13,287 bases of DNA from a virus (Duplodnaviria > Heunggongvirae > Uroviricota > Caudoviricetes): IMG/VR virus record IMGVR_UViG_2802429225_000001; one strand, written 5' to 3'. The position numbers and the translations under genes were made by a program. Below, piece by piece: positions 1-13,096 of the stretch (positions are counted from its first letter, which is position 1; each line of letters begins with the position of its first letter). Below the pieces are notes generated by a model. It was not told the origin of the DNA. It ran no database searches and worked only from the letters and a program-made list of their open reading frames with translations.

Positions 1-489
1 TTCGTCCCGTATACCGCCATGCAGGACGATAGCGCCCCGACAGGCCAGCGCATCTGGGAAGAGTTACAGAGCGGCAAATGGGGAGAAATAACCCCGTTCA
101 CCGTCACGCCGGAACTTATCACCGCGGCGAAGGATGCCAAAAAGCGGGAAATCGAGGTGTGGCGCACAGAACAGGAGGCGCAGCCGTTCACGTTCGAATG
201 GAACGGTCGTAGCTGGAATGCTGGCCCCAGCTCACTGGCCCGTATCTATCCGGTGGTAATGGCATCAAAATCCGACACAGCGCGGGACGTTATGACATGG
301 GGTGATGCCGATAATCAGCAAGTGAAGATGTCGATGCCAGAGCTTGAGGAGCTGGCTACAGCTATGGCGCAGGCGCAGGTTAACCGCAATGATGAAATTT
401 ATCGACGTCAGCGACAGATGAAGGACGTGCTGGATGGCCTGAATAATCTTGCCGACATCCGCGCTTTTCAGACTGGAGAGTCAGAATGA
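1..489 (+). CDS. Phage tail-fibre-assembly-like protein, DUF4376-type C-terminal domain; reading frame is open to window position 1, so the 5' end probably lies outside the window (first in-window Met at 19)
   Basis: ORF 19..489 with no in-frame stop between 1 and 18 and no Shine-Dalgarno before Met19. Pattern WR..EA..FTFEWNG..W...W.DADN..V.M...RQRQMK matches my recollection of the DUF4376 signature. Stop overlaps next start (ATGA at 486-489). Confidence 0.5.
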   Translation, partial: FVPYTAMQDDSAPTGQRIWEELQSGKWGEITPFTVTPELITAAKDAKKREIEVWRTEQEAQPFTFEWNGRSWNAGPSSLARIYPVVMASKSDTARDVMTWGDADNQQVKMSMPELEELATAMAQAQVNRNDEIYRRQRQMKDVLDGLNNLADIRAFQTGESE

Positions 490-1199
490 AATGGGAAAAG
501 GCAATTCTGCGTCCGTCAGCCATGCACATTAAATGCTCTGTGGTTTGCCTTCATCCATGGTCAGAAAATACCGGAAACATCAAACCATCGGGGCGTTATC
601 TCAGCCCCGAAAATGCTGTATCTGCACTTTTACCCTATCTGAAAGAAAGCACAGAAAAAGACATTGTGGCGCTGTTATTTTGCACCCCTTCTGCTGGCGA
701 GTTTTTATCACTCGCCAGGCAATTTTCAGGCGCATTTCCGTTGCCGGAGGTGGGACGAATGTCCCGCATGATCTCCAGCCAGCTTTCACTGGCCATCAGC
801 AGAATGCAAATCCCCGCCAGACCGGCAACATCACTTCCGGAACCGATAATGCTGTCGACACAGACCACTCGAAGCATGTCGCTGGCGGCAACCATTGCAC
901 AGGCAGCCACTCCTGCCGCCACATCACCGGAAACATTGTCATCATCGCTGCATCAGTTCATGAATGCGAGAGATAAAGCCTTACAGGAAATCGCTGATCA
1001 GCAGGCCGCACTCCGGCAAAAATTTTGCCCGGTGTGGCGCTTTTGCTACAAGGGAGCTCTTAGCCAGGCTGCAGTGCTGATACAAAAAAACATCCCACAC
1101 CCCGAGTGGGTTTTTACAGCTGTGATGCTGTTCGTCGGCGATAATCTCTCATCACTAAGGGAAGCACTACATGACCCAGATGATTGTCCTTGCGCTTGA
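486..1199 (+). CDS. Hypothetical prophage protein (237 aa), function unknown
   Basis: Longest ORF in region; ATGA start/stop overlap with upstream gene and 29-nt overlap with downstream gene suggest a coupled operon. Rare-codon content is fairly high and the protein is S/T/A/P-rich, so the frame call is moderate. Confidence 0.45.
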   Translation: MKWEKAILRPSAMHIKCSVVCLHPWSENTGNIKPSGRYLSPENAVSALLPYLKESTEKDIVALLFCTPSAGEFLSLARQFSGAFPLPEVGRMSRMISSQLSLAISRMQIPARPATSLPEPIMLSTQTTRSMSLAATIAQAATPAATSPETLSSSLHQFMNARDKALQEIADQQAALRQKFCPVWRFCYKGALSQAAVLIQKNIPHPEWVFTAVMLFVGDNLSSLREALHDPDDCPCA

Positions 1200-1746
1200 C
1201 GGGGAAGCCATTCTGCTGCGCAACATCACCGTCAGCGCCACCATGCAACTACCGGACAAAGATATGTCCGGACAGTCAACCAGCACCACGAGCGCCCAGC
1301 AGGGAAACAAGGCTAAAGAGCTGCGCGTGTCGGGGGTTATTGATTTTAACGATGAAGCTATTCTGACCCGTATTTTTCAGCTTGCGGAGGCAACAGAAAG
1401 CAACGGTGCTAAAAAAACATATCGCATTGCTAACGCTACCGCGAAGGCAATCAATATGCGACAGGGGGTATTTTCTGGTGGCATTGATGCCACGGAACAA
1501 CAGGGAAAAATGCACTGGCAGGTCACCTTTACTCTCAGGGAAAAATTAAGCGTGCCAGAGAAAGCATCAGCACGTAGCGGTTCACAAAAAACCATCGCCA
1601 GACAGCAGACCCAGAATGGCAGCGAACAGGCACCAGACAAAGGCATGAATACGCAAAGTTCGTTCTGGAAAAAAATCAATGATGCCGTTGGCTCTGGTCT
1701 GGATGCTGTTGGCATTGGGAGCGTGAAAGAGGAAGGGAAAACATGA
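1171..1746 (+). CDS. Hypothetical prophage protein (191 aa); possibly a tail-associated protein
   Basis: ORF with AAGGGA Shine-Dalgarno-like sequence about 7 nt before ATG 1171; stop overlaps next start (ATGA at 1743-1746). No motif I can assign confidently. Confidence 0.5.
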   Translation: MTQMIVLALDGEAILLRNITVSATMQLPDKDMSGQSTSTTSAQQGNKAKELRVSGVIDFNDEAILTRIFQLAEATESNGAKKTYRIANATAKAINMRQGVFSGGIDATEQQGKMHWQVTFTLREKLSVPEKASARSGSQKTIARQQTQNGSEQAPDKGMNTQSSFWKKINDAVGSGLDAVGIGSVKEEGKT

Positions 1747-3440
1747 AATTGATACAACGCTGCATGATTAATGGCGAACAGGTGGAAATTGCCGATATAA
1801 ACCTTGTTCTTACCCTGAATGCTGCCGGTCGTGGCTTCATTTCTGTTAACAATCTGTCACCCGAACACAGCCTTGCCGGCGCAATGGTACAAATTGATCT
1901 CGGCCGTGACGGTGAAGCATGGCGCTATTTCTCCGGCTACATTGAGCGCGATCAACCTGCTGAAAATGGCTCACGTCGCCTTTTTATCCGTGAAGCAGCT
2001 GCTGTGCTGGATTTTGATTTCCCTTGCTCCATGCAACACCCGACGTTGCGGGGGGTACTCGATAATCTGGGCAAACAAAGCGGCATCGTTTTCATCACGC
2101 CAGATGCGGATTACGTCAGCATACCAACTCCCTACATCACCCACAGCGGCAGCGGAGCACAACTGCTCAGCCAACTGGGGCGAGCATTCAGTATCAGCGA
2201 TTACGTCTGGCATCCAATGCCGGACGGTTCTGTATTTGTGGGAAGCGCAGCTGATTCACGATTTGCCAGTATTACAATGCCGGATATTCCGCAACAGTAC
2301 ACACTCGGGCAAAGCGGCGGAAACAGCATCGACATCATGTTTATGGAAACTGTGCGACCGGGCGTGAACCTACCGGCCGGGCGCATTACCCGTGTAGCCC
2401 TCAACAACGAGAAAATGACCCTGACATGGGAGCGCCTTACCGCCACGGGTAGCCCTGTTTCCAAATCACCATTACGCAGACAAATGGAAACACAGTTCCC
2501 GGAACTGGCCAGCGGTACTCTTCATACCCGGCTGGCGCGCGTCATTGCCCCAACGGAATCCGTCACCCTGGGCGATGTAGCCGACAGCTTCCGCCCACGC
2601 TACGCCGTTGATGTGCAGTTGCTTGATGAGAACGGCAACGATAAAAACGATACACCTGTTTACCCGGCAGTACCCCTCCCCGTCCCCATGGCTGGCAGTG
2701 AGGCGGGATGTTTTGCCTACCCGCCGGCTGGCACCATCGTGGAAATATCCAACATTGAAGGACGACCGGATAAACCTGTCATCAGGCAAATCTTACCCGC
2801 GGGCCATAACCTGCCTGATGTAAAGCCCGGCGAACAGCTGCAGCAACAGCGCGCAGAAGTGTTTCAGCGCGTCACGACTGACGGAAGCTGGCACAGAGAA
2901 ACCGATCAGCAAATCAGGGAGCATTCAGCCAGGCGAACCATTAACAGCGATCAGGAAGAACGCACAACAACAACCAGAACAACAACAGTACAGGCAAACG
3001 ACATAACCAGCGTTCTGGGAACCAGCAAGCTGATGACAGGCCAGACAGAACACATTACTACTGGCCATTATGCGATCGCAGCCGGTGAGCATATCCAGAT
3101 GGTAGCGCAGGATTTGCTGACTAAACTCAAAGGGGCGACATCCACCATCGAACATAACCTCACCGAAAATGTGGGAGGCCGCAGAACATGCCGGGCGGAC
3201 GGCGGCCTGGAATTTACCGCCCCGACTGTATTTATCGGTCGCGGTGGCTCACGGGAAAAATCCGGACTTAATCTGCTGACGTTGTTGATTGATATTCTGG
3301 ATCTGGTTCAGTTGCTGGCCACACACACTGCAAACCATACCCATAGCAATACTGGCGCACCAACAAACAGCAGCGAACTTGCCACAGACGCCCAACAGGC
3401 TACGAGCCTGCGCGAAAAATACGGTGACCTTATCGCCTGA
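1743..3440 (+). CDS. Prophage structural-type protein (565 aa); possible baseplate hub (gpD/gp27/VgrG-like N-terminal region) with Thr-rich linker and His-cluster C-terminal region
   Basis: Long ORF, translationally coupled to upstream gene. N-terminal segment (AWRYFSGYIER ... LRGVLDNLGKQSGIV) resembles the conserved hub motif of gpD/VgrG proteins as I recall it; C-terminal part has ERTTTTRTTTV and HTANHTHSNTG (HxH-type cluster as in spike tips). Functional call is by-eye only. Confidence 0.6.
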   Translation: MKLIQRCMINGEQVEIADINLVLTLNAAGRGFISVNNLSPEHSLAGAMVQIDLGRDGEAWRYFSGYIERDQPAENGSRRLFIREAAAVLDFDFPCSMQHPTLRGVLDNLGKQSGIVFITPDADYVSIPTPYITHSGSGAQLLSQLGRAFSISDYVWHPMPDGSVFVGSAADSRFASITMPDIPQQYTLGQSGGNSIDIMFMETVRPGVNLPAGRITRVALNNEKMTLTWERLTATGSPVSKSPLRRQMETQFPELASGTLHTRLARVIAPTESVTLGDVADSFRPRYAVDVQLLDENGNDKNDTPVYPAVPLPVPMAGSEAGCFAYPPAGTIVEISNIEGRPDKPVIRQILPAGHNLPDVKPGEQLQQQRAEVFQRVTTDGSWHRETDQQIREHSARRTINSDQEERTTTTRTTTVQANDITSVLGTSKLMTGQTEHITTGHYAIAAGEHIQMVAQDLLTKLKGATSTIEHNLTENVGGRRTCRADGGLEFTAPTVFIGRGGSREKSGLNLLTLLIDILDLVQLLATHTANHTHSNTGAPTNSSELATDAQQATSLREKYGDLIA

Positions 3441-3479
3441 TCACCGGGCATAAAGCCCCCCATAAACGCCCCATCACGC

Positions 3480-3508
3480 AACGCACGGCTCCGGTCGTGC
3501 GTTTTCAT
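3480..3508 (+). terminator. Candidate intrinsic terminator after the 565-aa gene
   Basis: Stem ACGCACG (3481-3487) / CGTGCGT (3496-3502), 8-nt loop, followed by TTTTC; lies 40 nt after the stop at 3440. Confidence 0.4.
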
Positions 3509-3983
3509 ATCTGCCACCTGATTAATGCGTTCTGCGTGCCATTCCGGCGCTGTATGCGCACACCACGTAAACGGTGTGACGTAAAGCGTGAGGTGACGTA
3601 AACCGCGCTACCCCCTCCAACCCGCGGGTTTTGTGTCGAAACACTTTTTCAGTTTTCTGCCGTGCAAAAATGACCGCCAGCCCGCGCAGCAACTGAGGGA
3701 AAAGCGAAGATCTGAAATTTCACGTTTTGAAATTTTTTGCAGTTTTCAGAGAGGTTTTTACGATCGCACAAATGGCAGGGGCAATAAAACTGCATGATAT
3801 TAAAAGAGTTTTCATGCTTTACGTGGGACAAGACACGATCGCGAAAGGATCGCGTTAAACAACTCTCAAACAAAGAAGCCAGACGCAGCGCGGCCTGCGT
3901 AAAATCAAGAGCCAGAATTAAACTGAAAAAAGGATCAATACCACGCCTCGATCGCGCATGACGATCTATGCAGCAACATGACG

Positions 3984-4050
3984 AAAAAAAACCGGCGCGA
4001 ACGCCGGCGGAAGCATGTATCAAATGCGTGACTGAATAATGTCTGCGGTC
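3984..4050 (-). ncRNA. Candidate small RNA (about 67 nt) with its own promoter and intrinsic terminator, divergent from the hok-like promoter
   Basis: On the minus strand: -35 TTGAGG (4079-4084), 16-nt spacer, extended -10 TGaTATAAA (4057-4065), then about 67 nt ending in hairpin CCGGCG-UUCG-CGCCGG (3992-4007) followed by eight U (A-run 3984-3991 on plus strand). No convincing ORF or Shine-Dalgarno inside. Confidence 0.35.
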
Positions 4051-4088
4051 GGGAATTTTATATCAGAAGACTGACAGGCCTCAACGGA

Positions 4089-4118
4089 TTGAAACAAGGG
4101 AAAAAACCAGGCTAGAAT
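4089..4118 (+). promoter_or_regulatory. Candidate sigma70 promoter of the hok-like mRNA
   Basis: TTGAAA (4089-4094), 18-nt spacer, TAGAAT (4113-4118); predicted start near 4125, exactly where the 5' element complementary to the 3' end begins. Confidence 0.45.
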
Positions 4119-4168
4119 TCGCGCGGGTGCCTTTCGGCTGATGGCTGGAGGGAATACCTGAAGGCCGG

Positions 4169-4351
4169 ATGTGGAAAGGCCCCGGAAAACATTTTTGTTT
4201 AACCGAGGCCCTAACCGTCTACCTAGCAAGTGATAGGTTAGCGCCTCCCCGAAAAAGGAGCAAGCGCTATGTCGCAAAAATCGCTTACAGCCATCACGTT
4301 CTGTGTGACGGCAATCCTCATCATCTGGATGCTGCACGGCTCGCTGTGTGA
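4169..4351 (+). CDS. mok-like overlapping reading frame (60 aa) upstream of and overlapping the hok-like toxin gene
   Basis: ORF starts at ATG 4169 (GAAGG 4160-4164 upstream), is in a different frame from the toxin ORF and ends inside it, as mok does in hok/sok loci. Protein shows no recognisable domain, so the role is by position only. Confidence 0.3.
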   Translation: MWKGPGKHFCLTEALTVYLASDRLAPPRKRSKRYVAKIAYSHHVLCDGNPHHLDAARLAV

Positions 4352-4409
4352 AATACGGATGAGCTTCTGGGGAGCGGAGTTTGCGGCGTTCTTACAGTGT
4401 AAGCAGTAA
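4269..4409 (+). CDS. hok: Hok/Gef-family type I toxin (46 aa small membrane peptide)
   Basis: ATG 4269 preceded by AAGGAG (4255-4260, 8-nt spacer). Translation MSQKSLTAITFCVTAILIIWMLHGSLCEIRMSFWGAEFAAFLQCKQ has a hydrophobic N-terminal helix plus the SLCEIR ... E.AAF motif shared with Hok (R1) and HokA. Below the size cut-off of the supplied ORF track. Confidence 0.7.
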   Translation: MSQKSLTAITFCVTAILIIWMLHGSLCEIRMSFWGAEFAAFLQCKQ

Positions 4410-4495
4410 GGAAACCGCGACGGGGGAGTAATCCCCCGTCAATCGGTTGCTAAGGTTGGTCGAAACGGCACCCTATCTCACAGACATGAACAACA

Positions 4496-4530
4496 AACCC
4501 GCAGCGTAAAAACTGCGGGTTTTCTTTTTG
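4496..4530 (+). terminator. Intrinsic terminator of the hok-like transcript
   Basis: Stem AACCCGCAG (4496-4504) / CTGCGGGTT (4513-4521), loop CGTAAAAA, followed by TTTCTTTTTGTTG. Confidence 0.6.
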
Positions 4531-4579
4531 TTGCCCTCACAAATGAGGGTGACACTATTCGTAAGCAATAGGCATGACA

Positions 4580-4627
4580 GATCGATGCAATAAATCCGAT
4601 CGATAAAAACGATCGGTTTGTTATCAT
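4580..4627 (+). promoter_or_regulatory. Regulatory region of the com-methyltransferase operon: three clustered GATC sites plus candidate extended -10 promoter
   Basis: GATC at 4580-4583, 4598-4601 and 4611-4614 (two within ATCGAT); TGtTATCAT extended -10 at 4619-4627 with no good -35 (the -35 position coincides with a GATC). Resembles the layout upstream of Mu mom. Confidence 0.4.
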
Positions 4628-4661
4628 ATCGGCAGCAGTAACCACACAAGAGGTGCCGCAA

Positions 4662-4859
4662 ATGACGCAAAATGTACGATGCAAAAATTGCAACAAACTA
4701 CTTGCCCGCGCCTCATTTCACTACATTGAAATAAAATGTCCGCGCTGCAAAACACTTAACCAGATAACGAGAGCCATTGAGCACCCCACACGCATGAGGA
4801 GTTATGACCGTGGGGATCGCAACCCAGCATCAACCAGTACATACACCGGAACACACTAA
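4662..4859 (+). CDS. com: Com-like zinc-finger translational regulator (65 aa from ATG 4662; the ORF track starts 3 codons earlier at GTG 4653)
   Basis: AAGAGGTG Shine-Dalgarno (4648-4655) 6 nt before ATG 4662. Protein MTQNVRCKNCNKLLARASFHYIEIKCPRCK ... EHPT carries the CxxC ... CxxC motif and surrounding residues of phage Mu Com. Confidence 0.8.
   Translation: MTQNVRCKNCNKLLARASFHYIEIKCPRCKTLNQITRAIEHPTRMRSYDRGDRNPASTSTYTGTH
4784..4815 (+). promoter_or_regulatory. Stem-loop sequestering the methyltransferase ribosome-binding site and start codon (candidate Com-responsive translational operator)
   Basis: CCCCAC (4784-4789) pairs with GTGGGG (4810-4815); the 20-nt loop holds GAGGAG (4796-4801) and ATG 4804. 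Lies inside the 3' end of com. Confidence 0.4.
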
Positions 4860-5610
4860 GATTTACCAGATTGACAATGCCACGCTCTGTCGTGGAAATG
4901 CACTGGAAATATTGCCGCTGATTGAGCCAGAAAGCATTGATGCCTTAATCACTGACCCGCCTTACAGTTCGGGTGCGACACACAAGGCCGGACGCACCAA
5001 CCAGGGCAGTCATGCAAAATATCTGAACGGCGAGAACCTTCACCGCTTTGATGGGTTCGCGGGTGAGAACATGGACGCCCGTTCGTGGGCTTACTGGACA
5101 CAATTATGGATGGCACAGGCACTACGTGCAGTCAGGTCGGGCGGTTATGCCCTGGTATTTACTGACTGGCGACAACTGCCTGCTTTAACCGATGCGTTTC
5201 AGGCCAGCGGTTTTACATGGCGTGGAATCATTGCGTGGAACAAAGGAAAGGGGTCACGAACACCCCATACGGGGTATTTCCGGCATCAGTGCGAATACAT
5301 CGTCTGGGGCAGCAAAGGCCATTTAGGTAAATCGCCTTCGGGTCCGTTCGACGGCTGCATGACGTTCCCGGTTATCCCGTCAAAGAAAATGCACCCGACC
5401 GGAAAACCAGAAGAACTAATGGCAGAGCTGGTCAGAACTGCGAATAGTGGCGGAACAGTCCTTGATCCTTTTATGGGGTCAGGGACAACGGGTGTGGCTG
5501 CACTGAAAGCAGGGCGAAAATTTATTGGTATAGAAACCAGTGATCATTATTTTGAGGTAGCGGCGCAGCGGCTTCGGGGGACTATTACCACAACCATTTC
5601 GACTACATAA
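4804..5610 (+). CDS. DNA amino-methyltransferase, beta class (N6-adenine or N4-cytosine; N6_N4_Mtase type), 268 aa
   Basis: Motif IV DPPY (LITDPPYSS) precedes HPTGKP and motif I DPFMGSGTT, the beta-class order (IV before I). Start overlaps the com 3' end out of frame (ATG 4804; alternative GTG 4810). Confidence 0.85.
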   Translation: MTVGIATQHQPVHTPEHTKIYQIDNATLCRGNALEILPLIEPESIDALITDPPYSSGATHKAGRTNQGSHAKYLNGENLHRFDGFAGENMDARSWAYWTQLWMAQALRAVRSGGYALVFTDWRQLPALTDAFQASGFTWRGIIAWNKGKGSRTPHTGYFRHQCEYIVWGSKGHLGKSPSGPFDGCMTFPVIPSKKMHPTGKPEELMAELVRTANSGGTVLDPFMGSGTTGVAALKAGRKFIGIETSDHYFEVAAQRLRGTITTTISTT

Positions 5611-5640
5611 GACAAAGCCCGCATTTTTTGCGGGCTTGTC
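5611..5640 (+). terminator. Hairpin immediately after the methyltransferase stop (candidate terminator; T-run is in the loop, not 3' of the stem)
   Basis: GACAAAGCCCGCA (5611-5623) / TGCGGGCTTGTC (5629-5640) with TTTTT loop; starts 1 nt after the TAA at 5608-5610. Confidence 0.35.
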
Positions 5641-5711
5641 TATCCTTACTGATGTGGACAGTTTGTGGATGCTTATAAGAAATAAGCTAATAGAAACAAT
5701 CTGTTAGATTT

Positions 5712-5737
5712 ACAAAAAACGCGCCCGAAGGCGCGTT
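5712..5737 (-). terminator. raiA intrinsic terminator
   Basis: On the minus strand: AACGCGCC-UUCG-GGCGCGUU followed by UUUUUU (plus-strand A-run 5714-5719); 24 nt downstream of the raiA stop. Confidence 0.6.
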
Positions 5738-5760
5738 GGCGATACACTCAATATAAAGGA

Positions 5761-6156
<396 letters not shown>

Positions 6157-6349: not shown

Positions 6350-7775
6350 TAATGCCAGTCAGTTAAGCAACTGACTGGCTCTTTTTCGGGGCTGTGGGGG
6401 ATTTCCAGGGTCTCTCCTTTACCACTCTCGGGAAGGCCCTTTCCCTTCTTGTCGGTAATTTCACTAGTTGTCCCATACTTGCAAGATCGCGCATCAGCTC
6501 CGGTATACGTCCCGGTGAAGCGCCCTGCAATGTCATCAGCATTCTCATCACCATTCCGCATGATTCTGAGAAACTCAGTTGATTCGGCCAGTAACCTTTC
6601 AGATGTTCTGCCATTTTAATCATCTGATATCTCACCAGATTATAAGCCAGTAAGACACCCCATAGCTCTTGCTCCACAAGCTCCGGCTTTTTACTTCTCA
6701 GCGTCAGCCTGCTCAGTTGCATCGTCTGTTTTATCTCCCTGTATCCCAGTTCGATTTCCCAGCGATGACTGTACAGATCCGCCATTTCTCCTCCGGGGAA
6801 GCGCATGGCGTCCGTCATCGACGTCAGCAGATGGCAGACTTTTCCTTTGCGCGTCACGGTCAGCAGGCGGGCTGTCACCTCATTTCCCAGTCCCGGCCAC
6901 TTTTTTCGTGCCTGCGGGCTGGTTTTCAGCTTCACCAGATGATCGCCTTTACCCAGTTTTCTGATCTCTTCATATTGCGCTCCCTTTCTGAGAGGGATCA
7001 TCCAGTGGCGGTGTTCTCCCGCCTGGCTCCAGGCATTTAACAGTCCCAGTGAGTAATAACCTTTATCCATTAACGTCAGGGTGTTATCGCCGGTTTGTTC
7101 TATAAGTTGCTCAGCAAGCTCATTTTCGCTGTTCTTCATCGTGCCGAAAGCTGCAGCCGTCAGCAGATGGCTGGTCAGTTCCATCTGGCAGACCATTTTG
7201 ACCTGCGGGTAGAGCGCCGGGTTCCCGGCATGTGTCTGGCGGGGGAAGGCTGCATCGTTCTCTGGTGTATCCGGTGTGCGCCAGAACACACCATCGATGG
7301 CCAGCAGGGTCAGGCCGCACCAGTGCGGATGCGGCGTGGCGTTATGCCAGAGCTGCGCTGTTTTCGTGAACACGCGGCGGACAGCCTCACTTCCCAGGCG
7401 CTGGCGGGCCTGAATAACGGCACTGGGGGCAACGAAGGGGCGATTGCCCGGTAGCATGATGTCCAGGCGATTCACAATCTGGTGAAGAGGTTCTTTACGC
7501 TCAAGCGCCATGCCAACAATACACCAGACCATCATTTCGAGGGGAAGACGGCGCTTGCGTAGCGTTACAGTACCTGATTCGGCAAGGCAACGAGAGATGA
7601 GTTCGGGGTCGAGGTAATCCCCCAGAGAAGTCAGTGGGTTACGCAGAGAATCGTAACGGGATACCAAATCAAGTGCCTGTCCAATGAGCATAAAAAAATC
7701 CGGAAACGAGTGAGCGTTTCCGGATTCTTACACAGCCACTGGATCGGTCAACTGATCCTTAACTGATCGGCATTA
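6350..7775 (-). mobile_element. IS4 insertion sequence, complete copy (1426 bp) with 18-bp imperfect terminal inverted repeats
   Basis: Ends TAATGCCAGTCAGTTAAG (6350-6367) and, reverse-complemented, TAATGCCGATCAGTTAAG (7758-7775), 16/18 match. Length 1426 bp and a single 442-aa transposase ORF match IS4 as I know it; flanked by the 13-bp direct repeat. Confidence 0.9.
6363..7691 (-). CDS. insG: IS4 transposase (DDE family, InsG-type), 442 aa
   Basis: Full-length ORF inside the IS. Start ATG at 7689-7691 is immediately preceded on the minus strand by an 11-bp stem (7698-7708 / 7715-7725) and a U-run, a typical IS read-through barrier. Confidence 0.9.
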
Positions 7776-10393: not shown

Positions 10394-10455
10394 CCTAAAG
10401 AATCAAGACGATCCGGTACGCGTGATTTTCTTTTCACATTAATCTGGTCAATAAC

Positions 10456-10483
10456 CTTGAATAATTGAGGGATGACCTCATTT
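10456..10483 (+). promoter_or_regulatory. Candidate sigma32 (heat-shock) promoter of clpB
   Basis: CTTGAAT (10456-10462), 13-nt spacer, CCTCATTT (10476-10483), matching the sigma32 consensus CTTGAAA / CCCCATnT; about 40 nt upstream of the clpB start. Confidence 0.55.
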
Positions 10484-10522
10484 AATCTCCAGTAGCAACT
10501 TTGATCCGTTATGGGAGGAGTT

Positions 10523-13096
10523 ATGCGTCTGGATCGTCTTACTAACAAATTCCAGCTTGCTCTTGCCGATGCCCAATCACTTGCACTCGGGCACGACAAC
10601 CAATTCATCGAACCACTTCATTTAATGAGCGCCCTGCTGAATCAGGAAGGGGGTTCGGTTAGTCCTTTATTAACATCCGCTGGCATTAATGCTGGCCAAT
10701 TGCGCACAGATATCAATCAGGCATTAAATCGTTTACCGCAGGTTGAAGGTACAGGGGGCGATGTCCAGCCTTCACAGGATCTGGTGCGCGTTCTTAATCT
10801 TTGCGACAAGCTGGCGCAAAAACGTGGTGATAACTTTATCTCGTCAGAACTGTTTGTTCTGGCGGCACTTGAGTCTCGCGGCACGCTGGCCGACATCCTG
10901 AAAGCAGCAGGGGCGACCACCGCCAACATTACTCAAGCGATTGAACAAATGCGTGGAGGTGAAAGCGTGAATGATCAAGGAGCCGAAGACCAACGTCAGG
11001 CTTTGAAAAAATATACCATTGACCTTACCGAACGTGCCGAACAAGGTAAACTCGATCCGGTAATTGGTCGTGATGAAGAAATTCGTCGTACCATTCAGGT
11101 ACTGCAACGCCGTACTAAAAATAACCCGGTACTGATCGGTGAACCTGGTGTCGGTAAAACCGCCATCGTTGAAGGTTTGGCGCAGCGTATTATCAATGGC
11201 GAAGTACCTGAAGGGCTGAAAGGCCGCCGCGTACTGGCGCTGGATATGGGCGCGCTGGTGGCTGGGGCGAAATATCGTGGTGAGTTTGAAGAACGTCTGA
11301 AAGGCGTGCTGAACGATCTGTCGAAACAGGAAGGCAACGTCATTCTGTTTATCGATGAGCTGCACACCATGGTGGGCGCAGGTAAAGCCGATGGCGCAAT
11401 GGACGCCGGGAATATGCTGAAACCGGCACTGGCCCGTGGTGAACTGCACTGCGTGGGCGCGACCACCCTTGATGAATATCGCCAGTACATTGAAAAAGAT
11501 GCGGCGCTGGAACGTCGTTTCCAGAAAGTGTTTGTTGCCGAGCCAACGGTGGAAGACACCATTGCTATTCTGCGTGGCCTGAAAGAACGTTACGAGCTGC
11601 ACCACCATGTGCAAATTACTGACCCGGCAATTGTTGCAGCGGCGACGTTGTCTCATCGCTACATTGCTGACCGTCAGTTGCCAGATAAAGCCATCGACCT
11701 GATCGATGAAGCGGCATCCAGTATCCGTATGCAGATTGACTCAAAACCGGAAGAGCTTGACCGACTCGATCGTCGAATTATCCAGCTTAAGCTGGAACAA
11801 CAGGCGTTAATGAAAGAGTCTGATGAAGCCAGTAAAAAACGTCTGGATATGCTCAATGAAGAACTGAGTGACAAAGAACGCCAGTACTCTGAGTTAGAAG
11901 AGGAGTGGAAAGCAGAGAAAGCGTCACTCTCTGGCACCCAGACCATTAAAGCCGAACTGGAACAGGCGAAAATCGCCATTGAACAGGCGCGCCGTGTAGG
12001 TGATCTGGCGCGGATGTCCGAACTGCAATACGGCAAAATTCCGGAGCTCGAAAAACAACTGGAAGCGGCTACGCAGCTCGAAGGCAAAACCATGCGTCTG
12101 TTGCGTAATAAAGTGACTGACGCAGAAATTGCTGAAGTGTTGGCGCGTTGGACGGGCATTCCTGTTTCTCGCATGATGGAAAGTGAGCGCGAAAAACTGC
12201 TGCGTATGGAGCAAGAACTGCACCATCGTGTTATTGGCCAAAACGAAGCCGTTGATGCGGTATCTAACGCCATTCGTCGTAGCCGTGCGGGGCTTGCGGA
12301 TCCTAATCGCCCGATTGGTTCGTTCTTGTTCCTCGGTCCAACGGGTGTAGGTAAAACCGAACTCTGTAAGGCGCTGGCGAATTTTATGTTCGACAGTGAC
12401 GAGGCGATGGTTCGTATCGATATGTCCGAGTTTATGGAGAAACACTCGGTGTCTCGTCTGGTTGGTGCACCTCCGGGATATGTGGGTTATGAAGAAGGTG
12501 GCTACCTGACTGAAGCGGTGCGTCGTCGTCCTTATTCCGTCATTCTGCTGGATGAAGTGGAAAAAGCGCATCCGGATGTATTCAACATTCTGTTGCAGGT
12601 TCTGGATGACGGACGTCTGACTGATGGGCAGGGGAGAACGGTCGATTTCCGTAATACGGTGGTCATTATGACCTCTAACCTCGGCTCCGATCTGATCCAG
12701 GAACGTTTCGGTGAACTGGATTATGCGCGCATGAAAGAGCTGGTGCTCGGCGTGGTTAGCCATAACTTCCGTCCGGAATTCATAAACCGTATTGATGAAG
12801 TTGTGGTCTTCCACCCGTTGGGTGAACAACATATCGCTTCGATTGCCCAGATCCAGTTGAAACGTCTGTACAAACGTCTGGAAGAACGTGGTTATGAAAT
12901 CCACATTTCTGACGAGGCACTGAAACTGCTGAGCGAGAATGGTTACGATCCGGTTTATGGTGCACGTCCTCTGAAACGTGCTATCCAGCAACAGATCGAA
13001 AACCCGCTGGCGCAGCAAATACTGTCTGGTGAATTGGTTCCTGGCAAAGTCATTCGCCTGGAAGTTAATGAAGACCGCATTGTCGCCGTCCAGTAA
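10523..13096 (+). CDS. clpB: Chaperone/disaggregase ClpB (Hsp100 AAA+ ATPase), 857 aa
   Basis: Two AAA+ modules (Walker A GEPGVGKT and GPTGVGKT) and the middle coiled-coil. I place the start at ATG 10523, which gives the 857-aa length I know for ClpB, with GGGAGGAG 10513-10520 as Shine-Dalgarno, rather than the track's ATG 10511. Internal GTG (Val149) at 10967-10969 matches the known ClpB-80 alternative start. Confidence 0.97.

Follow-up and report, generated by a model that had tools for sequence, protein, structure and literature searches.

A probable Com-gated β-class DNA methyltransferase cassette at the right end of a P2-like Escherichia prophage

The com-methyltransferase gene pair

The viral record IMGVR_UViG_2802429225_000001 (Caudoviricetes), from now on referred to as the window (the whole stretch of 13,287 nucleotides (nt) that was analyzed), is an Escherichia-type chromosome segment in which the right end of a prophage fills roughly positions 1-5672. 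The terminal gene pair of this prophage, located on the plus strand, consists of com (4662-4859), encoding a 65-amino acid (aa) CCCC zinc-ribbon protein of the Mu Com family of RNA-binding translational activators, and a gene encoding a β-class N6/N4 amino DNA methyltransferase (4804-5610; 268 aa if read from ATG 4804, 266 aa if read from GTG 4810). The two genes overlap by 56 nt when counted from the ATG and by 50 nt when counted from the GTG. Based on the features described below, this pair is likely a DNA-modification cassette that uses the regulatory chassis of Mu com-mom, carries a β-class methyltransferase as its cargo and is gated by Com.

The product of com matches the Pfam family Zn_ribbon_Com (PF10122; 44.5 bits against a cutoff of 22.9 bits, E = 1e-11) as well as the PHROG "gpCom control of modification" (2.7e-17), and shares 59.5% identity with Mu Com over residues 3-43 (tblastn, E = 3e-7). 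These profile searches confirm the first-pass annotation, which had assigned the 65-aa open reading frame (ORF) to the Mu Com family from the letters of the sequence. The protein contains the stretches RCKNCNKLL, IEIKCPRCK and EHPT. In an alignment of 22 Com sequences, including those of Mu, KS5 and B3, the four cysteines C7, C10, C26 and C29 are invariant together with R6, L14 and R28, while K12, L13, E23, K25, P27 and K30 are at least 90% conserved; the window protein keeps the family-invariant residues. A comparison of Com with solved structures only yielded chance zinc-ribbon matches to eS27. The gene starts at ATG 4662 and is preceded by a Shine-Dalgarno (SD)-like sequence, AGAGGT, at 4649-4654. 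An in-frame GTG is also present at 4653, and RefSeq picks the ATG in the 97%-identical locus L001. The product name given by RefSeq/PGAP is "Com family DNA-binding transcriptional regulator" (L001 12263-12475; 183 E. coli genomes), a name that looks misleading given that the Mu Com literature describes an RNA-binding translational activator.

The downstream protein matches N6_N4_Mtase (PF01555; E = 4.4e-32, 112.3 bits against a cutoff of 26.7 bits) and contains the motifs DPPY (aa 51-54, nt 4954-4965), HPTGKP (aa 197-202, nt 5392-5409) and FMGSGTT (aa 223-229, nt 5470-5490). Because DPPY (motif IV) is located N-terminal to FMGSGTT (motif I), the order of motifs is that of the β-class, and together with the profile match it upholds the earlier description of the overlapping gene (4804-5610) as a β-class amino-methyltransferase. 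Among solved structures, CcrM (1.9e-20) and DpnA-type adenine methyltransferases (1.2e-19) gave the best matches. Judged by the DPPY motif and these best matches to adenine enzymes, the protein is most likely an N6-adenine methyltransferase. None of the NCBIfam equivalog thresholds was reached (PRK13699, 100.6 against 244; CcrM, 86 against 830; YhdJ-type, 75 against 292) and target specificity can therefore not be read from homology. The match to PF01555 is not accompanied by one to the D12/Dam-like family PF02086, and identity to D12-type cargo proteins is only 11-17% (alignment A4). Likewise, the window enzyme has no match to Mom (PF25680), a family for which the cargo of locus L122 gives 7.8e-78 for comparison. 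More than 5,700 clusters make up the very large family of phage and prophage methyltransferases, roughly 250 aa in length, that includes the window enzyme. For this enzyme, a ratio of nonsynonymous to synonymous substitutions (dN/dS) of 0.05-0.14 against seven close relatives indicates purifying selection.

The conserved start of the methyltransferase is probably the in-frame GTG at 4810 rather than the ATG at 4804. This choice is based on the spacing from the SD sequence (8 nt to the GTG but only 2 nt to the ATG), on a 74%-identical relative (L120/L199) that keeps the GTG and is without the ATG, and on the fact that Mu and cassettes with Mom or C5 cytosine methyltransferase cargo start at the same GUG, located in the 3' arm of a stem. 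PGAP annotates the ATG, a difference that changes the protein by two residues.

At its C-terminus, the enzyme occurs in two forms of 268 aa (ending in GTITTTISTT, as in the window) and 263 aa, which differ by a 15-nt indel and local substitutions, as seen by comparing window positions 5540-5610 with L002, L007 and L179. Each form occurs in viral contigs. The possibility that these variants reflect an attachment (att) core inside the methyltransferase gene was rejected, as the two forms are set apart by a 15-nt indel and as all copies, including that of a free phage, continue with phage sequence for about 60 nt past the stop codon.

Predicted control of the methyltransferase start

In Mu, the RNA target of Com is 5'-CC(N)2-3GAG-3', as defined by SELEX and SHAPE, and is located within a small hairpin that adjoins a translation-inhibition stem-loop holding the GUG start codon of mom (PMC6483171). 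A predicted Com-binding motif of this type, GC[CAUUGA]GC, is found on the plus strand at 4773-4782, with CC-AUU-GAG at 4774-4781, inside the com reading frame (Ala-Ile-Glu-His). It is directly followed by a predicted translation-inhibition hairpin (4784-4815, plus strand) that buries the methyltransferase start. The outer stem of this hairpin is formed by CCCCAC (4784-4789) and GUGGGG (4810-4815), while an inner stem, CAUGA/UUAUG, pairs the ATG at 4804 in the minimum-free-energy fold. The SD sequence GAGGAG (4796-4801) is found at the hairpin tip, with GGAG forming the apical loop and the first GA ending the CAUGA arm. For GTG 4810, the predicted unpaired probability is 0.0, the same value as for the GUG of Mu mom.

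A nucleotide alignment of the window with Mu shows conservation of GCC...GAGCAyCCCAC. The window contains the composite element GCCNNNGAGCNYCCCAC a single time, at 4773-4789, compared with a shuffle expectation of 0.04. In an alignment of 14 distinct enterobacterial junctions representing three cargo types (alignment A5), GCC and GAGC do not vary, unlike the three loop bases between them. All six outer stem pairs are formed in 100% of the alignment cells, with the 20-nt hairpin loop varying freely. Five of these pairs are invariant and the outermost changes from C-G to U-A in the Mu clade, representing one compensatory event. The EHPT stretch of Com is encoded by GAG CAC CCC ACA, that is, by bases of the RNA element, and its presence in the disordered tail of the protein seems best explained as an imprint of this element, not as a protein feature. 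An Rfam scan of 3400-5800 returned no family covering the Com site or the hairpin; only a sub-threshold sok match and chance-level matches were found.

The RNA element was then considered across the family, using com loci drawn from one genome per species and from viral contigs, which resulted in 70 non-redundant loci for motif analysis. CC(N)2-3GAG is found no more than 110 nt past the zinc finger in 64 of the 70 loci, whereas dinucleotide shuffles gave a mean of 14 and a maximum of 23, and a control segment 400 nt downstream contained the motif in 6 loci. The extended motif GCC(N)2-3GAGY is present in 58/70 loci compared with a shuffle mean of 2. In several loci (L048, L077, L060 and L070), the motif is located beyond the com stop codon, marking it as an RNA feature and not merely a protein constraint. 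Segments from the motif onward fold into more stable structures than their shuffles (mean z of -1.42 against -0.18 for controls; Mann-Whitney p = 4.5e-7) and pairing of the start codon is more frequent in cargo genes than in controls (unpaired probability of 0.30 against 0.45, p = 2e-4), with these p-values being indicative only as the loci are not phylogenetically independent. The start codon has an unpaired probability of 0.0 in the window, in Mu and in the hin1523-type locus L048 of H. influenzae.

Upstream of com, three GATC sites are located at 4580, 4598 and 4611 (spanning 4580-4614), spaced 18 and 13 base pairs (bp) apart and partly contained within an inverted repeat, CCGATCG-N7-CGATCGG (4596-4616). 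The 18/13-bp spacing is identical to that found in Mu (L003, GATC at 789, 807 and 820) and in L007, L013, L109 and L120, and the GATC cluster is kept in nearly all enterobacterial cassettes. The mom promoter of Mu, Pmom, is under Dam and OxyR control (PMC3378877), and GATC pairs 13 bp apart are typical of methylation-sensitive OxyR half-sites, as in gtr (PMC2909390). We infer that the GATC triplet is an operator of the Dam/OxyR type and that it is homologous to the one at the mom promoter of Mu. A predicted σ70-type promoter on the plus strand (4600-4627) consists of a -35 element TCGATA (4600-4605), a 16-nt spacer and a TG-extended -10 element TATCAT (4622-4627), with 9 of 12 consensus matches in addition to the TG, and overlaps GATC sites 2 and 3. 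Between the last GATC and the start of com there are 51-53 nt in cassettes of the window class (51 nt in the window) but 76-80 nt in the Mu class (78 nt in Mu), and it is due to this shorter distance that the operator overlaps the predicted promoter. This overlap suggests direct occlusion by OxyR and independence from an activator of the Mu C type. In the close relatives L008, L117 and L118, two or all three GATC sites were lost via a deletion of about 31 bp. These loci keep the promoter-like -10 element, com and the methyltransferase, and would represent natural "operator-less" variants if the operator is functional.

The features above can be combined into a proposed mechanism. A bidirectional terminator-like hairpin (4495-4522, plus-strand coordinates; 10-11 bp stem with a T-run on both strands) separates com from the hok/sok-type locus upstream of it, so com and the methyltransferase would form their own transcription unit. 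Transcription would begin at the promoter just 5' of com, which the GATC triplet overlaps, and this promoter would be expected to respond to the state of Dam methylation as sensed by OxyR, in the manner of Mu Pmom. The resulting transcript encodes Com from ATG 4662, as shown by the ORF and its family membership, and the methyltransferase start (GTG 4810, possibly also ATG 4804) is locked in the stem-loop at 4784-4815, as judged by sequence, fold and conservation. By homology to the mapped Mu site, Com would bind CC-AUU-GAG directly 5' of this stem-loop and open it for ribosomes. The enzyme could then methylate replicating phage and host DNA, allowing progeny to resist restriction in the next host. 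Such a double lock suggests that untimely production of the enzyme is harmful. An anti-restriction role of the module and its "late" timing are both presumed here. Com-gated translation of the methyltransferase, as proposed in the first-pass annotation, is well supported at the sequence level by the Com motif and start hairpin (4773-4815) and by the GATC spacing identical to that of Mu.

A number of observations weigh against this proposal. The small hairpin at the Com site is weaker than its Mu counterpart, consisting of two G-C pairs and an A.A mismatch; its pair 7-18 is unpaired in 10 of the 14 junction sequences, and it falls outside the predicted minimum-free-energy fold. The fold of the window's own junction has a z of only -1.4 to -1.8, and covariation in the near-invariant stem is almost nil, the sole compensatory change being a single clade-level event. 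The accessibility of the SD sequence and start codon taken together (-13 to +3, 80-nt context) is the same for cargo and control genes (0.447 and 0.446). This measure was set aside as underpowered because Mu itself is not distinguished by it, leaving only the start-codon measure to separate the groups. In the folding model, the lack of a difference in broad accessibility fits a hairpin in which the start codon is hidden and the SD sequence is not, and it also shows that this evidence falls short of being strong. The promoter is a consensus match only, with 3 such sites in the region compared with 2.5 expected by shuffling, and no P2 Ogr-type late-promoter dyad (TGT-N12-ACA) was seen upstream of com by eye, no formal search having been made. 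Finally, com is directly upstream of all methyltransferase relatives with at least 74% identity in viral contigs but is present for only 3 of 36 relatives at 42-55% identity. As distant relatives are mostly without com, the gate would belong to the cassette, and the enzyme family would not be intrinsically dependent on it.

Dam and OxyR could instead impose heritable ON/OFF phase variation in the lysogen, as for P22 gtr or agn43, in which case expression would not be strictly late lytic and the methyltransferase would mainly act on the host chromosome, resulting in lysogenic conversion, epigenetic heterogeneity or protection against incoming restriction systems. GATC sites 2 and 3, located on the predicted -35 element and spacer, are separated by 13 bp, the distance seen in the OxyR half-sites of gtr (PMC2909390). 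Further, the operator is about 27 bp nearer to com than in Mu (51 compared with 78 nt), which leaves no room for a Mu C-type activator site, and a promoter with a 16-nt spacer and an extended -10 element could be activator-independent. We consider this explanation unlikely, however, as it depends on a consensus-only promoter match and on putative OxyR half-sites. In addition, the cargo enzymes of such cassettes are toxic or silent in lysogens where this was tested (Mom; Hin1523, undetectable in vivo; PMC3299994), and L008, L117 and L118 retain com and the methyltransferase despite having lost GATC sites.

A second alternative is that ribosomes finishing com, 44-50 nt past the cargo start, unfold the hairpin, that translation of com always brings about translation of the methyltransferase and that Com protein is dispensable. 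Due to the 50-56 nt overlap of com with the cargo start, translating ribosomes must indeed melt the 4784-4815 stem, and the weakness of the Com-site hairpin relative to that of Mu also speaks for such coupling. Yet Mu has the same geometry with an 80-nt overlap and still needs Com, which binds RNA (PMC6483171; PMC3378877). The Com-site bases are invariant in 14/14 enterobacterial junctions, including at synonymous positions, and the motif is kept where com ends before it and no ribosome would pass (L048 and L077), making ribosome coupling as the sole mechanism quite improbable.

We regard it as very unlikely that the locus is a decaying cryptic-prophage remnant without current function. The adjacent segment 3441-4110 is without credible genes and an IS4 element is found nearby, but the com and methyltransferase ORFs are intact, as are the catalytic and S-adenosylmethionine-binding motifs. 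Moreover, the dN/dS values given above argue against decay, and the same module is found in the free Escherichia phage Chuche (PP925824) and in many 30-40 kb viral contigs. That Com is a DNA-binding regulator acting on transcription of the methyltransferase or other genes, a role favored by its RefSeq/PGAP name, is hardly credible given that the founding member, Mu Com, is described as an RNA-binding translational activator (PMC6483171; PMC3378877) and that a conserved, strand-specific and structured cis element is found in the transcript at the cargo start.

Cargo exchange and prophage setting

A Pfam scan of the gene directly 3' of com in 73 non-redundant loci revealed a DNA-modifying enzyme in 64 of them, specifically, D12/Dam-like adenine methyltransferases (41 loci), N6_N4 β-class methyltransferases (11 loci), Mom (7 loci) and C5 cytosine methyltransferases (5 loci). 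Further, an ABC-type ATPase is encoded in one locus and an aspartyl-tRNA synthetase in two, and the cargo of the remaining loci had no Pfam match. The two aspartyl-tRNA synthetase loci are found in metagenome-assembled genomes of Margulisbacteria (Margulisiibacteriota), where Com-family ORFs (L076, 2495-2701; L079, 1641-1820; Pfam 2.5e-10) overlap the synthetase start. Both loci are without CC(N)2-3GAG and represent an exception to the Com-cargo rule. In Methylophaga thiooxydans DMS010 (L018, L033-L044), com and a Dam-like methyltransferase are found on at least 12 scaffolds, often at scaffold ends, which suggests either many copies of Mu-like transposable prophages or an assembly artefact.

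In enterobacterial prophages, a near-identical element, GCCNNNGAGCACCCCAC-N20-GUGGGGAAC, precedes three cargo types: β-class methyltransferases of the window type, C5 methyltransferases (L009, L133, L152-L157) and Mom homologues (L121, L122 group). Beyond the first few codons of the cargo gene, these enterobacterial cassettes are no longer similar in sequence. It is possible, and we propose it tentatively, that operator, com, Com site and hairpin together form a cargo-agnostic safety catch and that phages swap either this catch or its cargo through recombination inside the first three codons of the cargo (GUG GGG AAC), with EHPT as the imprint of its RNA. Under this joint reading, the enzyme guarded by the catch would resemble Mom, Hia5 and M.EcoGII in being a promiscuous adenine methyltransferase that is toxic to the host. 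The cassette may also be phase-variable in lysogens, since the operator overlaps the core promoter in the P2-like version.

The overall value of these results is modest in that they extend known cases and overturn nothing. For annotation, they highlight that the PGAP name conflicts with the RNA-binding role of Mu Com and that the methyltransferase start is probably GTG 4810. GATC operator and start hairpin together span about 250 nt, and such a compact natural module would lend itself to studies of translational control by Com outside Mu. An orphan β-class enzyme behind the same double lock as Mom and Hia5-type enzymes is also a reasonable candidate for a broad-specificity or toxic methyltransferase. 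Lastly, the enterobacterial cassettes point to modular exchange at a translation-initiation region, with one RNA element preceding at least three unrelated DNA-modifying enzymes, while four enzyme families follow com across bacteria.

The chromosomal part of the window contains raiA, bamD, rluD, yfiH and clpB as well as an IS4 transposase. Similarity to Chuche and other prophage copies stops after ...ATGTGG..GTGGA at about 5672, and the terminator of raiA (gene at 5761-6102, minus strand) is located at 5718-5737. This places the prophage/chromosome junction (attR side) in the approximate interval 5672-5717, in agreement with the earlier placement of com and the methyltransferase as the last gene pair before the junction. 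Directly after the methyltransferase stop codon, a G+C-rich hairpin (5615-5637) that is conserved in Chuche is a probable terminator; a simple terminator scan scores it on the minus strand only and its plus-strand T-run is weak.

The adjoining prophage ORFs match tail-fibre and baseplate PHROGs. Toward the junction, these structural genes are followed by an ORF-poor stretch, a hok/sok-type locus, the 4495-4522 terminator and finally com and the methyltransferase. The element carrying the module is P2-like and not Mu-like, as judged by sequence comparison, because its nearest phage, Chuche, encodes an integrase and a Cox-like excisionase. Chuche also carries P2-type tail genes, and the hok segment matches Xuanwuvirus/P88-type Peduoviridae. 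A transposable-phage (Mu-like) backbone is not supported given the integrase and Cox of Chuche and the P2-type neighbours, with the window itself holding only the right end of the prophage.

The hok/sok-type toxin locus (4125-4409, plus strand) lies directly upstream of com and contains a Hok/Gef-family ORF (4269-4409, 46 aa; PHROG MokW-like, 1.3e-22) and an Rfam sok match (4125-4282) that is below threshold (43 bits against a gathering score of 59). The trio of hok, com and methyltransferase is annotated in E. coli genomes and in Chuche, and the hok segment by itself is found in many P88-like and Stx phages. A stretch of about 670 bp (3441-4110) that separates the baseplate gene from hok contains no credible ORF and carries no annotation. 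Among 5426 complete E. coli genomes, just 50 contain this stretch, conserved at 91-96%, and a comparison with the phage collection gave no match. Read on the minus strand, it has a promoter-like site (4084-4055) and a terminator-like hairpin (4008-3991) that could delimit a transcript of about 65 nt.

Beyond the prophage, an IS4-family transposase (Pfam Nterm_IS4 and DDE_Tnp_1; 6363-7691, minus strand) is located between raiA and bamD, a gap that measures 270 bp and is without an insertion in the otherwise syntenic E. coli locus L001. The small RNA RyfD (Rfam RF02768, 125 bits) is found at 10404-10542 on the plus strand, just 5' of clpB and overlapping the clpB 5' region.

Comparison with known systems

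The combination of Com with a methyltransferase replacing Mom is not new, having been published for FluMu, Pnm1 and B3 and annotated in KS5, Chuche and E. coli. A literature search of incomplete coverage found no paper characterizing the methyltransferase of the window or stating modularity at the level of the cassette.

The com-mom system of Mu shares with the window a Com zinc ribbon, the overlap of com with the cargo start and a terminal prophage position. In both systems, CC-NNN-GAG is directly followed by a CCCAC/GUGGG stem holding the GUG start, and three upstream GATC sites are spaced 18 and 13 bp apart. In contrast to Mu, the window encodes a β-class methyltransferase instead of Mom, its hairpin loop is 20 nt long compared with 11 nt, its operator is about 27 bp nearer to com and it is without Mu C activator context, although no C-site search was made. 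Furthermore, the element is P2-like with an integrase and not a transposable phage. The first-pass view of a Mu mom-like module thus stands with respect to the Mu regulatory elements and the terminal place but not for the element as a whole, which is P2-like and for which the comparison with Mu is a positional analogy only.

FluMu (HI1522.1/hin1523), Pnm1 (nma1821) and an island of H. influenzae aegyptius (comHia/hia5) all encode a Com homologue and, next to it in the place of Mom, a downstream DNA adenine methyltransferase (PMC3299994). Hin1523, Hia5 and Nma1821 are sequence-non-specific and protect DNA from many restriction enzymes, and Com-type control has been proposed for them (PMC3299994). 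Like the window, the H. influenzae locus L048 has a Com motif and a start-codon hairpin. These enzymes are related to Dam and M1.DpnII (α/D12-like), in contrast to the PF01555 β-class enzyme of the window. The elements that carry them are Mu-like prophages and, unlike in the window, com does not overlap the cargo in L048. Pseudomonas phage B3, also noted as a case of Com with a methyltransferase (PMC3299994), encodes Com and an overlapping Dam-type methylase (ORF47/48), again of a methyltransferase class other than that of the window.

A functional precedent for a β-class enzyme under tight gating is provided by M.EcoGII, a non-specific β-class adenine methyltransferase of an E. coli prophage (PMC5778455, PMC7544214). 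It is likewise a prophage-borne orphan β-class enzyme and is silent in the lysogen and harmful when expressed. M.EcoGII has a length of 349 aa compared with 268 aa for the window enzyme, and Com is not mentioned in the M.EcoGII paper (PMC5778455).

With respect to both phage type and enzyme class, the Burkholderia P2-like phage KS5 and the Ralstonia phage RsoM1USA resemble the window. In KS5, gp21, a "Com translational regulator", overlaps gp20, an "N-4/N-6 DNA methylase" (PMC3091744), and both phages are P2-like (Peduoviridae) with com overlapping or abutting a PF01555-type methylase. The cargo proteins of KS5 and RsoM1USA (L004, L005) are 39% identical to the window enzyme, and the Com proteins of KS5, RsoM1USA and B3 are distant from that of the window (31-36% identity). 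The KS5 module sits between tail-fibre and sheath genes, unlike the terminal pair described here.

Escherichia phage Chuche contains the same module as CDS0013/0014, with 93.6% DNA identity over hok-com-methyltransferase and 96.9% identity for Com. The pair is annotated as "gpCom control of modification" and "DNA methyltransferase", follows the same hok-type gene and is located between an ogr-like regulator and the integrase/Cox region, a P2-like (Peduoviridae) arrangement. The Chuche enzyme is 263 aa long compared with 268 aa in the window, due to the 15-nt C-terminal indel, and the structural genes flanking the module in the window differ from the gpD/ogr neighbourhood of Chuche. Among 5426 complete E. 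coli genomes, 183 carry the pair with a PGAP label, at 95-97% identity.

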